Shown here: positions 1,047 through 63,051 of the stretch, one piece after another
Layout of the letters: every line of letters begins with the position of its first letter
Position numbering within the stretch: position 1 is the stretch's first letter
Origin: Octopus vulgaris
Lineage: Eukaryota
Direction of reading: 5' to 3'
Assembly: GCA_951406725.2 (NCBI GenBank)
Contig: OX597818.1
Span: 87,978,001-88,042,000 of the forward strand
Length of the DNA stretch: 64,000 nucleotides
Notes under the pieces: model-generated
The model's input: the letters and a program-made list of their open reading frames with translations, nothing else
What the model was told of the DNA's origin: nothing
Databases searched by the model: none
Translations under genes and position numbers: made by a program

Positions 1047-1285
1047 ATTCTTTTGTGTCTGGGGAGAGTCATTTTCTTTTGTGCCTTATAATGTAACACA
1101 CTCACCGGTAAAAATTCCACTTATTTCTTATTTTTATTTTCCTATAATTTCCGTTGCGTCTTGCAACCTTTTCAATAGTCTTTTAGGAAAATGAAAACAA
1201 GAAATAAATGGAAATTTTGCCGGTGTGTGTGTTACATTATAAGGCACAAAAAAGAAAATGACTCTCCACAGACACAACAAAAGAA
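1047..1285. repeat. ~97-bp imperfect inverted repeat, Penelope pLTR-like, with a degenerate hammerhead-like fold in the spacer
   Basis: 1047-1143 (ttcttttgtgtctggggagagtcattttc...ttttcct) is the reverse complement of 1185-1285 (aggaaaa...gaaaatgactctccacagacacaacaaaagaa). Confidence 0.75.
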
Positions 1286-1293
1286 ATTTAGTT

Positions 1294-1449
1294 TACCATG
1301 TTTGCTCGTGTATAAGTTGCACTATTTTACGTTTGATTTTTGTCTGGTATGTGACTGATAAAGGAGAAAAGCTAAAACTATGAAGATCTATCTCTAAATT
1401 AGGGGTACACTTGTACACGAGTGCAACTTATACACGAATAAGTACGGTA
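1294..1449. mobile_element. Tc1/mariner superfamily (pogo/Tc2-like) MITE
   Basis: ~29-bp TIRs including flanking TA: TACCATGTTTGCTCGTGTATAAGTTGCAC and GTGCAACTTATACACGAATAAGTACGGTA. Confidence 0.7.
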
Positions 1450-1724
1450 ATTACTCAGAGTCGCTATCCCCATGCAATTCATCAGCTAAGTGTTAATATC
1501 TTTAATGCAAGTAACAACAAAAACCTAAGAGATATTGAAGCGATATGAGAAAGACAGTACTAGCTACATCACTCAATATGTCTTGAAGCTTATTAGACAT
1601 ATCAAGACAGTAAGGTGTATTGTGTTTTGTAAAGTAGAATACCAAGGAATTTGGTAGAAAACTGAGAGACTGCATAGTCGTTTCTACAGTGCCACGTTTT
1701 GATTTTATTTGATGATGTCCCTTT

Positions 1725-2010
1725 ACACTGGCTTCAAATTTTGGCATAAGACCAGCCAGTTCAGGAAAGGGGCAAGTTAATTACATCAACCCCAGTGCTC
1801 CACACTAGGCACAAGGTTCGAAATTTTTGGGGACGGGGCCAGCCGATTAGATCGACCCCATCACGCAACTGGTACTTAATTTATCGACCCCGAAAGGATG
1901 AAAAGTAAAGTCGACCTTAGCGGAAATTGAACTCAGAATGTTCTGAACCAAAACGGCGTGCTGTAAGCATTTCGCCCGGCATGCTAACGATTCAGCCAGC
2001 TCACTGTCTT
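1725..2010 (-). mobile_element. SINE family B copy
   Basis: Shares CAACTGGTACTTAATTTATCGACCCCGAAAGGATGAAA...GAACTCAGAA with the copies at 30.3, 37.1 and 40.7 kb. Confidence 0.75.
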
Positions 2011-3079
2011 AGGTGTCCTTTGATAGTGAATGGCTTTGGGGAAAGAGCTATACGCTAGTGTTCACATGTCCTTAGATTTCGGTGAGATCGACATGCTTAA
2101 CGTTCATACGAGACTATCGCAACTCTTTAGTTACACGAAGGAAATATTTCCTAAAAGGAATTCCAGAAGGTCGATATTCTACAGGAGAAAGGACTGAAGG
2201 TGGTGATTAGTGTGGGATGGGAGTGATAGCTGGTAGGCATATGAAGAATACGAATCCAGGGACAGGAGCTGAGGTGGTACGACACGAAACCAGCCATATC
2301 AAGGAGCAGTGACCACTGTAGTAACGGGAGATAATCCAGAGAGAGAAAGAGGACACAGCGTGTCTGTGATCTGGACGAGGGAGTGTATTGATGAGCAAGT
2401 TTTGTAACAATATTGCATGTGTCTAGGTTGTTTTCTGTCTGTAGCAGGAATAGTAGCCGCAGGAGCAGTAGCAAGTGTGAGGGGCTGAATCTGGCTGGTT
2501 TGAACATAAAACAGACAGAATATGAGAATTCGTTCCCCAGGGCCGGACACGAAATTTTCTTTCCCTCGAGAGTTTCGGATCCTAATTATGAACTCATTTG
2601 CATACAGCCAATCAGAGCTCAACTATCAAACTAATTTATGAGCGCATAACAAGTGATGGGCGATAAGATAAAGTCACTTGGGTATGAAGCGGCTATGCTT
2701 CTTTTCTCTTTTAAGAATGCTTGTTGTTGTTTTTGTTTCTGCGTAGTTATTTGTGTTGTTGTTTACTTTGTAAAACAGTAAGGGGAGAAGGTTGCTAGCA
2801 CATCACCCTCTACCCACATTTTTCTCATCCACATCTTTACTACATGGGGCCCTAACAAAATCCGATAATAGGTATAGATGCAAATCTATCTAATTACTTG
2901 TCTCCTTCTGAAATCAGGCATAACTTGGCAATCGGTCGACTTACAACACCGTTCTTCGTCTTGGTCAAGGTGAGCTCTGATCAGCTGTATGCAAATGAGT
3001 TCATTACTGTGGCCCGGAACTCGCGTGTGAAAAAGTTTCGCGGGTCGGACCGTCAATCGAGAATTCCACTGCGACGAGA

Positions 3080-59930: not shown

Positions 59931-60804
59931 TATATATACATACATATATATATATTTATATATATATATATATATATATATATATATATATATATATATA
60001 TATATATATATATATATATAAATAAAATAAAATACAAAATGGGACAAGAATGCAAAACATGCGGACGACTATGTGATACAAAAAGGGACAACAAAACATC
60101 CAGATAGACGATACAAAAAAACACGGACGGGTCATTCGAAGCCTTTTATCTTCAGTCAAGAATCGGATCGTTCTCGCAATTTCGGCTGATTAATCTTGAG
60201 ATTGCTCCAACATCGCCAGCCCGAAGGAAAAACTAAGCTAAGAACATTAGATTCCTTGGAAAAAAGCATCGAATGTATACGAAACAAGGTCGGAAAAACG
60301 GACGATGTTATACGAATATAAATACAAAAATACAATAAAAAAACCAAAAAAAAAACAATTATAATAATAATAATAAGAGAATATAACAACAGGCGTCTTT
60401 CGACTGGGGACGAATTGAATTCAGCTGACGTGTGTGGAAATGAAGCCTTGCCGCAGAGGGAAGAATATCGATGTGGCAGTGATCGTGGTCAAACGCAAAA
60501 AGGGCTAGGAGTCGGCCAACGGTCACGTGAGAAGAGAAGAGAGAGAAAAAAAGGAACAAAGGAATTAAGAGGGGGAGAAGAGAGAGGGAGCGAGAGAGAG
60601 TATATAGCAGTAGATAGACGGAAGAATCAAAGAAATGCGAGGAAAAAAGAGACAGGGACATAGTGAAGTGCAAAGTGAGTAAGAAAAGCAAGGAAATGTG
60701 AGAGAGAGTGTTGAAAAAGTCGTACAAAATTTAGTGAAATGTGTACTTACATATAAGAGAACAAAGTGTACGTATATATATATAATTATAAATAAGAAAA
60801 TGGA

Positions 60805-61110
60805 GGCCGAGGCCTATGGATATATATATAAGTACCTCATTTTTAACTGCCTACAACCTCAATACAATTGACATGTATAGGCACAAAGGATTACTATTTT
60901 CCATAGGCTGAAAGTGATTTTAATGATTCTAACAGTTTATATTAACGTTTTAAATAACTACTTGTATTCTTATCTTATATGTATTGAATTTTATACTGTA
61001 TATATGTATGTTATTATGGTTGTTGTTTTGATAAATAAATAAGTCAACATTCTAAAATCCTAAAGCTGATAAGCCAACTAATATGTTTCTCCATTTTCTT
61101 ATTTGTAATA
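60805..61110 (+). repeat. Degenerate second copy of the repeat at 25260-25573
   Basis: gaggcctatgg...tgcctacaacctcaata...ccataggctgaaa...tgtttctccattttcttatttgta; CTGA and stem III are lost. Confidence 0.8.
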
Positions 61111-61267
61111 CAGTGAGTTTATTGCATTGCAATTAAAAACTCTTGTGTATTAATAATTTAGGTATTATACCAACAGTTTATTGGGTAAGTATTATCCCTT
61201 AGTGGGTTGCATCCACAACCCCTAACTTACATGGTGTTATATATATATATATATATATATATATATA

Positions 61268-62863
61268 TAGTTGCGGCCAAAATGTTCAGAACGACATTGT
61301 TTTCGCCCAAAAAAGTAGGTATAATTTTTTATCAAAGTTGTTTTATGTTCGATAATTTTCACAGACAATAAATACAATATTAATTGTTATTGTCTGAGAT
61401 TTTGGTGTAATTTGAGAGGATAATACAAAAGTTATGGATGATATAGTGATTTACTGCAAAACCCATGGCGGCCAAAATGATCAGAACGGTTGAAAATATA
61501 ACAAAATAATAAAAAATGACTGAGAATACTGAAATTATTTAATATTTAGTATGAAGCCCTTTAGCTTCAATCACACTTTGACATCTTCGACTGCATGAGG
61601 AAATTAAATTTTCAATTTCTTGCTAGGTGATCTTATTCCCTTCTTCCTGAAGGGCATTCCGTAATTGCTCGCTTGTTTTAGGATTTCTGGCTTTCAAACG
61701 TTCTCCTAGAATATTCCACACATTTTCAATAGGATTGAGATCTGGGCTTTGAGCAGGCCAATCCATAATAATAACCTTTTCAGTCTTGAGGAAGTTCATG
61801 ACCACCTTAGCCTTGTGACATGGGGCATTGTCCTGCATGAATATGGGTGGTCGCTTAGTTGAATTTCTCAGCACAGACAAGACATTTACCTTTCCGTGTA
61901 ATCGCACCAAAGAGCCCACACCGTCTCCAGATATCATCCCCCAAACCATAACACTTCCTCCACCGAATTTAACAATAGTCTTAAGGCATTTAGGCGACAA
62001 TTTTCACCTACTTTTCGACGAACGTACCTTTTCCCATCTGAGCCAAATAACATCAACTTAGATTCATCACTGAAATGCACCGTTTGCCATTTGTCTTGAG
62101 ACCACAACACATGTTCGGTTGCAAAGGTAAGACGACACTTTTTATTTTTGGAGCTGATCAGTGGCTTCACTGCAGGTGATCTTGCTTGTAGGTTATGTTC
62201 AACTAAACGATGAGACACAGTTTTTCGAGATAACGCTTTCTTCAGTACAATGCTCATTTCCCGAGAAACAGCAGCAGCAGTTTTAAATCTGTCCTTTTTA
62301 ACCAACTCTACTATAGCACGATCTTCTCTCTTGGTCGTTTTTCTTGGCCTACCTGTAGACTTTCTTGCTTCATACGAACCACAATCATCGAAGACCTTAA
62401 GAATACCGTGAACAACACTTTTTGACTTGTTAACAATCTTTGCAATAGACCCAATACTTAAATTATCCTTCTTTCGAAGCTTAATAATCTGCTGACGAAT
62501 TGGTAACGGAGTAAGTGACATTATATTAACAAAGTACAATGCAGATATTCTTAGTAATGTTTAGTAAATGAACCATCATGTAAACAAATTCAAAACATTA
62601 GAGTTCGCCGGTTAAATATATTAAAACACAGAGTAAAAGCAACCGTTCTGATCATTTTGGCCGCCATGGGTTTTGCAGTAAATCACTAAATCATCCATAA
62701 CTTTTGTATTATCCTCAGAAATTAAACCAAAATCTCAGACAATAACAATTAATATTGTATTTATTGTCTGTGAAAATTATAGAATATAAAACAACTTTGA
62801 TAAAAACTTATACCTACTTTTCTGGCGAAAACAATGCCGTTCTGAACATTTTGGCCGCAACTG
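61268..62863 (-). mobile_element. Near full-length Tc1 (DD34E) transposon with ~225-bp IR/DR-type TIRs
   Basis: TIRs 61268-61492 and 62641-62863 with outer and inner direct repeats GCGGCCAAAATG(T/A)TCAGAACG; inserted in (TA)n. Confidence 0.95.
61539..62521 (-). pseudogene. Tc1 transposase (frameshift near 62000, premature stop at 61623, small deletion)
   Basis: GRPRKTT, WQTVHFSDESK, VKFGGGSVMVWG, FMQDNAPCHKA, WPAQSPDLNPIENVW (34 aa between D and E), ..AKGLHTKY stop. Confidence 0.93.
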
Positions 62864-63016
62864 TATATATGTATATATATATATATATTCATGTTTATAT
62901 ATGTAAATATATATGTATATAAAGTTAATCCAAACAAGAAAGCACAAAAAAAACACAACGCGAGGACGTGGAACAAATATAGTATATTTGGACGCTCAGG
63001 AAAGAAGGAAAGGAGG

Positions 63017-63051
63017 GTTTAACGTTTCGAGCGGAGCTCTTCGTCGGAAAC
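63017..63051 (-). ncRNA. Minimal hammerhead-like motif, core variant CCGACGA
   Basis: Minus strand GTTT-CCGACGA-A-GAGC-TCC-GCTC-GAAAC-GTT-AAAC, inside repeat ~62925-63120. Confidence 0.55.

Follow-up and report, generated by a model that had tools for sequence, protein, structure and literature searches.

Hammerhead ribozymes are known from the end repeats of Penelope-like elements (PLEs). Those described by Cervera and de la Pena (2014; accessible passages of PMC4209133) adopt a type I fold with a short helix I and a long helix II, carry an extra base after A9, a palindromic helix III and in some cases a U3-A8 variant core, and come mostly as single motifs from truncated PLEs and as inverted pairs. 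The Penelope/Poseidon, Neptune and Hydra clades (Craig et al. 2021; accessible passages of PMC8557442) have a C-terminal GIY-YIG, pseudo-long terminal repeats (pseudo-LTRs), 5' inversions, 30-40 bp tails and zinc-finger-linked (TA)n targeting. The TRIMp3 elements Cassandra, Helenus and Ajax (Kojima 2024; accessible passages of PMC10886601) are non-autonomous LTR elements with an RNA polymerase III (Pol III) promoter, derived from a small RNA (tRNA or 5S), in the terminal repeat. Here we analysed a 64,000-nucleotide stretch of Octopus vulgaris (contig OX597818.1, positions 87,978,001 to 88,042,000; hereafter the window), in which 12 hammerhead sites fall into 9 repeat families, and searched the 2.80-Gb assembly with them. 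The PLE features listed above recur here, and the hammerhead finding is the known PLE pattern, as far as the passages of PMC4209133 go, plus one retrozyme-like family. What is new is a tRNA-like head in the pseudo-LTR of a coding PLE, which we call family A.

The passages of PMC4209133 make no mention of such a head, and a tRNA-like head plus an (AAT)n array inside the pseudo-LTR is likewise distinct from the elements in those of PMC8557442. By analogy, the TRIMp3 elements appear to be the closest counterparts of family A, with a promoter of small-RNA type, putative in family A, in the terminal repeat; the family A head, however, neighbours a ribozyme, and the pseudo-LTR that contains it belongs to a protein-coding PLE. 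Family A also resembles tRNA-derived short interspersed nuclear elements (SINEs) in its putatively tRNA-related head, where A and B boxes can be made out by eye, its defined 5' end at this head, its tail common to an autonomous partner and its thousands of copies. It differs from them in that the partner is a PLE bearing the head itself, the inversions are of PLE type and there is no poly(A) tail. A tRNA-headed PLE pseudo-LTR was not found in the full-text literature, a search that left Repbase, Dfam, subscription papers and supplements outside, where the element may be catalogued; the phrase 'mobilized by Penelope' also occurred in none of the papers listed. The accessible passages of two cephalopod repeat papers (PMC13282606 and PMC8967140) describe no such element, and 'hammerhead' and 'ribozyme' occur 0 times in those of PMC13282606.

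Family A occupies three sites in the window (23130, 42191 and 52614), made up of the following parts:

22834-22908, plus strand: copy 1, tRNA-like head with A box and B box
22909-23075, plus strand: copy 1, (AAT)n spacer, which most copies have, at variable length
23076-23235, plus strand: copy 1, tail, with a hammerhead at 23125-23171 whose stem III is decayed
41865-42143, minus strand: copy 2, inverted part with head (~42073-42146), (AAT)n and partial tail
42148-42276, plus strand: copy 2, direct tail, with a canonical hammerhead at 42186-42231 and a predicted cut after 42226
52545-53013, minus strand: copy 3, inverted tail piece, head, (AAC/AAT)n and tail, with a decayed hammerhead at 52615-52659

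The pseudo-LTR opens with the tRNA-like head (74 nt), followed by an (AAT)n array and then by a hammerhead tail of 140 nt that continues into the start of the open reading frame (ORF), giving the order ORF, head, (AAT)n, hammerhead and ORF start again; inverted pseudo-LTR copies are also present. For this and the other families, each repeat was used as a query against the genome and the best 15-30 loci were retained, and the samples are therefore biased towards query-like copies. In ORF-selected loci, family A lies downstream of the PLE ORF, with the head in 28 of 30 and the tail in 27 of 30. The ORF carries RVT_1, and its endonuclease is recognized by motif alone, without a Pfam match. The protein is 55-69% identical to 18 longer relatives, which carry PF00078 and/or PF26215; no DNA of these relatives turned up in two metagenome scans or in one viral scan. 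The A and B boxes of the head are visible by eye, and ARAGORN at its 90% threshold (ps90) draws a full cloverleaf for the copy at 42073-42146. Elsewhere in the genome, ARAGORN with default settings predicts three tRNA-Arg(TCG) genes around a family A insertion (locus L024, 669-3066). In the window, copy 3 sits at the truncated 5' edge of a young family I element (52400-53013).

We read the head as most likely a captured Pol III promoter that sets the 5' end of the RNA and yields SINE-like copies; for our account as a whole, in which the hammerheads lie in PLE ends and family B is a retrozyme, we put the probability at about 0.7. Support for the captured promoter comes from where copies begin, scored in 29 tail-selected loci and the 3 window copies, with some segments being the two arms of one fold-back. 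The head is absent from 7 of these loci. Among 33 head segments, 14 start at -7 to -2 and 9 at +1 to +6 (23 of 33 at -7 to +6), 8 start at 12-52 and 2 enter the ORF; the interval from -8 to -173 contains no start. RNA made from a type-2 Pol III promoter would be expected to begin ~6 nt before the head, and we lean towards a Pol III start at this point. Conversely, loci selected by the head contain the tail in 26 of 29 cases and the ORF in 0 of 29, and the head therefore does not belong to a separate SINE with a different body. Exact 20-mer counts, which are affected by subfamily differences, amount to 8,057 at the tail start and 3,917 in the middle of the head, by comparison with 919 for a 20-mer whose end lies 5 nt upstream of the head and 818 for one 120 nt further into the ORF, which is a 4.3-fold step in copy number at the head start.

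For a Pol III transcript, the sense strand was predicted to be free of the TTTT terminator. L239, a natural copy, contains 0 TTTT in 2,360 nt against 2.97 expected from dinucleotide shuffling (P=0.036), and its ORF of 2,196 nt contains 0 against 3.35 expected from synonymous-codon shuffling (P=0.017). Other family A copies contain 2 TTTT runs in 23,143 and 17 in 36,386 aligned bases, each run in at most 2 copies, and TTTT occurs in 2 of 13 pseudo-LTRs. By comparison, a Neptune control ORF has 12 TTTT against 7.6 expected. This depletion is modest evidence for Pol III.

In the mechanism that we propose, transcription would begin ~6 nt upstream of the tRNA-like head, and the PLE protein would prime reverse transcription internally, just past the first pseudo-LTR, copying back to the RNA 5' end. 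Such internal priming would produce thousands of SINE-like head-to-tail pieces, many with fold-back inversions, and a 5-bp palindrome at the end would allow the cDNA to fold back, giving head-to-head pairs. In vitro, the protein of a lizard Poseidon element initiates reverse transcription at an internal position beyond the pseudo-LTR, and it prefers uncleaved RNA (accessible passages of PMC11167929). ORF-bearing copies would arise from priming at the second pseudo-LTR of a longer or circular RNA. In 15 of 30 loci the start of the ORF is preceded by a direct pseudo-LTR, and longer or circular templates therefore also exist; it reaches the head in 4 of these loci, in one of which it continues into the preceding ORF end.

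Several observations weigh against the captured promoter. Neither default ARAGORN (0 genes in the window) nor Rfam calls the head a tRNA, with Rfam giving neither a hammerhead nor a tRNA match on two short stretches, and the head folds no better than shuffles (z +0.89). The 20-mer count halves from tail to head, indicating steep truncation throughout the pseudo-LTR too, and the palindrome is native to the head start and could by itself cause snap-back. Furthermore, the TTTT depletion comes from a single ancestral sequence; 1 of 10 control ORFs is equally depleted (the Tc1 transposase piece at window 61934-62560, 0 against 3.4, P=0.016), and two short pieces among 9 further control ORF pieces also lack TTTT.

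The chief rival explanation keeps the PLE ends and holds that the head is a dead tRNA or SINE passenger; the 5' ends would pile up through snap-back of the cDNA at the palindrome, or because a Pol II start or RNase P cut happens to fall at the head. Many family A copies are indeed head-to-head around the palindrome, and several start at +1 to +3, where RNase P would cut. In addition, Drosophila Penelope has an internal TATA-less promoter (accessible passages of PMC2377424), and Pol III has been argued to be too weakly processive for autonomous elements (accessible passages of PMC10886601). However, starts at -6/-7 occur without a fold-back there in five genomic loci (L004, L012, L013, L016 and L022) and at window 52614, the A and B boxes are intact and the ORF lacks TTTT, and we consider a dead head unlikely.

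The captured promoter might also serve the whole element. Family A would then be autonomous and transcribed by Pol III end to end into a terminator-free 2.6-kb RNA, an extension that we hold to be speculative and rather improbable. Hammerhead cleavage just upstream of the ORF would license cap-independent translation, and the same RNA would spawn SINE-like copies of its own 5' end, making SINE and partner one element. Viral ribozymes have been reported to open translation of uncapped RNA (accessible passages of PMC13725137), and with ribozyme-triggered cap-independent translation the main objection to Pol III transcription of the whole element would go. The short copies may be by-products of the RNA of the full element.

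The other hammerhead families are represented in the window by the following features:

1045-1290, minus strand: family J, PLE-type end with 5' inversion (arms 1053-1119 and 1209-1277) and a decayed U3-A8 hammerhead at 1142-1178
5408-5520, minus strand: family E fragment between two (TA)n runs, ending inside the hammerhead, of which the 3' half remains
23776-25572, plus strand: family D, long 3' end interrupted by a foreign insertion at ~24130-24520
25254-25381, plus strand: family D hammerhead with long stem II
34050-34275, minus strand: family E, putative Neptune-type PLE 3' end, hammerhead at 34178-34215 with A6U fixed in the sampled subfamily
34282-34440, minus strand: family B2 fragment, ~79% like B, with the hammerhead outside the fragment
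51355-52400, minus strand: family I, 3' pseudo-LTR of a very young, putatively Neptune-type PLE, with a doubtful U3-A8 hammerhead at 51443-51483
54047-54283, plus strand: family C, C-terminal end of a putative Hydra-type PLE endonuclease, 5'-truncated and with a short inversion
54284-55536, plus strand: family C 3' untranslated region or pseudo-LTR, canonical hammerhead at 55417-55502, predicted cut after 55498
57068-58432, no single strand: family B, ORF-less 596-bp unit, as an inverted 1.4-mer plus a direct unit
57260-57359 (minus) and 58046-58145 (plus): canonical family B hammerheads, with a half motif at ~57859-57899 (minus)
58960-59125, minus strand: family H, PLE-type end, hammerhead at 59048-59091 with G12 mutated here
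62925-63120, minus strand: family F, PLE-type end running into (TA)n, hammerhead at 63017-63051 with a U4C variant

An earlier sequence-only reading of the window had described PLE-type minimal hammerheads in unrelated families, together with palindromic stem III, 5' inversions and tandem copies, and our analysis bears this description out. All 12 of its motif sites were located, at most 2 nt from where it had placed them. Sites are named by the first base of CUGAnGA on the plus strand and at 57353(-), and by the motif 3' end, within 2 nt, at the remaining minus-strand sites, whose cores start at 1175, 34210, 51479, 52654, 59085 and 63047. A strict descriptor (exact core, stem I of at least 4 and stem II of at least 3, optional extra base after A9) matches at 42191+, 55421+, 57353- and 58052+. 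These 4 matches compare with a mean of 0.08 (maximum 2) in 60 windows with local dinucleotide shuffling, of which 0 reached 4. Allowing one core mismatch gives 6 matches against 0.5 in shuffles, adding 34210- (A6U) and 63047- (U4C), and a descriptor without the extra base after A9 misses 42191. Genome-wide, the pattern CTGANGA-N(11-27)-GAAACGTH has 20,638 matches, and the same pattern reversed has 1,162. The motif is enriched over its controls in both the window and the genome.

The remaining sites vary in quality. At 25257+ the core is exact and a long insert is closed by a stem II of 9 bp, but stem I measures just 3 bp. Those at 23130, 52614, 59085 and 1175 are decayed in the window, but a proper fold results when the most frequent letters of each family are taken; G12 of family H, for instance, is intact in 14 of 15 sampled copies. 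The site at 1175 has a U3-A8 core, a variant described in the accessible passages of PMC4209133. The weakest site is 51479, which combines a U3-A8 core with an irregular stem II lacking G10.1-C11.1, and its copies are too alike for testing. Overall, the type I core (CUGAnGA, GAAA and UH with stems I-III) is found in families A, B, C, D and H, core variants are found in E, F and J, and the core of family I is doubtful. Six window motifs fold with stem II as drawn, mostly with stem I too (z -1.2 to -3.5). The Rfam hammerhead models gave no match at 42191, and no hammerhead stood among the 150 of 366 whole-window matches listed, which held just microsatellite-driven miRNA matches below the gathering score. 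The hammerhead motifs are, judged by sequence, genuine, and their cleavage is predicted. Separately, a further repeat family at window 5871 (-) and ~56850 (-) carries CUGAAGA with no well-placed GAAA or stem III and is possibly a half-core or rearranged hammerhead. Extra hammerhead families with an 8-nt palindromic stem III occur outside the window at L074, L093, L108, L240 and L311.

The canonical motif is kept in 20 of 20 family B loci (some overlapping), 18 of 20 C loci and 13 of 20 D loci, with 5 more D loci carrying it with one mismatch. Across 120 family A copies, N7 is split between A (53%) and T (46%), by comparison with an average of 95% for one letter in the other core columns, and the variable core columns in E and J are N7 or H17. 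Stem covariation, on which the hammerhead claim could be checked, was found between B and its sister B2 (75% identical), which differ by two compensatory pairs: U-A to C-G in stem I and A-U to G-C in stem II. Stem III of B2 is a perfect palindrome (11 matches in 9 of 20 loci), and stem changes within family A are just G-C/G-U. The freedom of N7 and the compensatory pairs are the pattern expected from selection on the hammerhead fold in master copies. In a single contig of run X13, from another organism, a G to A change at window 58135 gives a perfectly palindromic B stem III.

Telling against active ribozymes, A6U is present in 31 of 31 sampled E copies and U4C in 22 of 27 sampled F copies. 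The motifs might accordingly be protein-binding or priming structures that keep the hammerhead shape and no longer cleave; inserted copies also extend through the cut site, and minimal PLE hammerheads cleave poorly in vitro, and as dimers (accessible passages of PMC4209133). Cleavage is also dispensable in vitro (accessible passages of PMC11167929). Master-lineage variation, however, falls on N7 and H17, which we take to be the free positions, and stem III is self-complementary across families. We therefore regard a shape without cleavage as quite unlikely.

The sequence-only reading further proposed that these families are mainly non-autonomous, (TA)n-seeking, self-cleaving RNA elements. That they are non-autonomous is mostly wrong, since PLE coding sequence stands immediately upstream of A, C, E and I, which are the 3' pseudo-LTR ends of protein-coding PLEs. 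Family C adjoins the Hydra-type endonuclease end in the window (54047-54283), and its longer copy L093 has a weak GIY-YIG match below cut-off. Family E lies downstream of a Neptune-type GIY-YIG in L130, L131 and L140, where the endonuclease stands alone and below cut-off. In L238, the family I pseudo-LTR stands on both sides of a complete ORF with reverse transcriptase (RT) and GIY-YIG, and both RVT_1 and GIY-YIG are above cut-off. All 40 of 40 scored family I ends are 100% identical, which suggests recent activity. This very young, apparently Neptune-type element (L238, 2368-6146, minus strand) also has a second frame, of 366 codons, ahead of the one for RT, and a microsatellite-like 3' untranslated region of 2.2 kb. 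The same Hydra-type endonuclease lies upstream of family D in 2 of 19 loci with an inconsistent register, and this link is only suggestive.

By their motifs, A would be Poseidon-type, C Hydra-type, and E and I Neptune-type. The PLE reading of the hammerheads is very probably right, against which stand the lack of an ORF link for F, H and J and of a firm one for D in the sampled loci, and the derivation of the clade names from motifs (in part those in the accessible passages of PMC8557442), not from an RT tree. That all families are non-autonomous holds for B and B2, agrees with F, H and J and with the ORF-less state of most copies in every family, and is refuted for A, C, E and I by their contiguous coding sequence. 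In addition, families C, E and F have scattered 5' ends, the outcome expected of truncation, and family A avoids (TA)n, making a wholly non-autonomous set highly improbable.

The proposed (TA)n preference stood for six families and B, and failed for family A. The background frequency is 0.105; (TA)n comes directly after the 3' end in 10 of 19 C, 13 of 19 D, 16 of 19 E, 18 of 19 F, 7 of 14 H and 14 of 14 I loci, by comparison with 1 of 29 in family A; judged by eye, it flanks family B in all 14 loci listed. A linker zinc finger has been tied to (TA)n targeting in PLEs (accessible passages of PMC8557442). In agreement, family A, in which no linker zinc finger was seen, is unbiased, and the Neptune-type I and E are biased.

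Among the window families, just B and its older sister B2 are ORF-less and tandem. Family B is a 596-bp unit with no ORF above 67 codons, in arrays of up to five with units >99% alike, and has 282 exact motif copies in the genome. It shares with non-LTR retrozymes (accessible passages of PMC7229834 and bioRxiv 10.64898/2026.07.22.740005) ORF-less head-to-tail units, low GC, one type I hammerhead per unit and dimers to pentamers. Its unit length is above the 170-400 nt of the former source and within the 51-972 bp of the latter, and, unlike the retrozymes of these passages, it targets (TA)n and has 5' inversions in the style of PLEs. The hammerheads of families B, C and D also differ from those in the passages of PMC4209133, having very long inserts in helix II and palindromes of 8 nt in helix III. 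Family B is likely a non-coding retrozyme using a (TA)n-targeting PLE in trans, against which it counts that no partner ORF was found in 20 B and 20 B2 loci. Among the sequencing runs listed as containing family B, none is on record as RNA; four contig sets guessed to be RNA cover B in pieces, with no start, end or circle.

Family J was considered as a miniature inverted-repeat transposable element and rejected: one arm runs into a PLE-type tail, and a U3-A8 hammerhead lies in the centre. In all sampled copies (window 1045-1290; L223-L236), the inverted and direct arms meet near one point, at hammerhead stem I and the cut site, which may reflect query bias or a link between cleavage and inversion.

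The window is ~22% microsatellite, and its SINEs presumably resemble octopus SINEs. A LINE reverse transcriptase fragment unrelated to PLEs lies at 14197-15817 (+; RVT_1, E 1e-30). Two related ORF1-like pieces, at 47644-48516 (-) and 29881-30492 (+), one with a weak zinc knuckle, are assumed to be Tx1-like. The insertion at ~24130-24520 inside the family D end finishes in a short hairpin plus CTAG, and we take it to be Helitron-like. A Tc1-like transposon at 61307-62825 has 186-bp inverted repeats, 96% alike, and mariner-like pieces lie at 2856-3448 and 6491-7004.

PLE hammerheads as such are known. This genome offers more than 20,000 motifs in several clades, natural active-site variants and a very young retrozyme-like family. 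Repeat libraries would probably label the short copies of family A as plain SINEs. If the captured promoter is real, a tRNA-type promoter in the terminal repeat of a coding PLE would be a direct route for a SINE to arise from, and be moved by, a PLE. If the whole element is transcribed by Pol III, it would contradict the rule, given in the accessible passages of PMC10886601, by which autonomous retrotransposons depend on Pol II, and the role of the ribozyme would be to open translation of an uncapped RNA.

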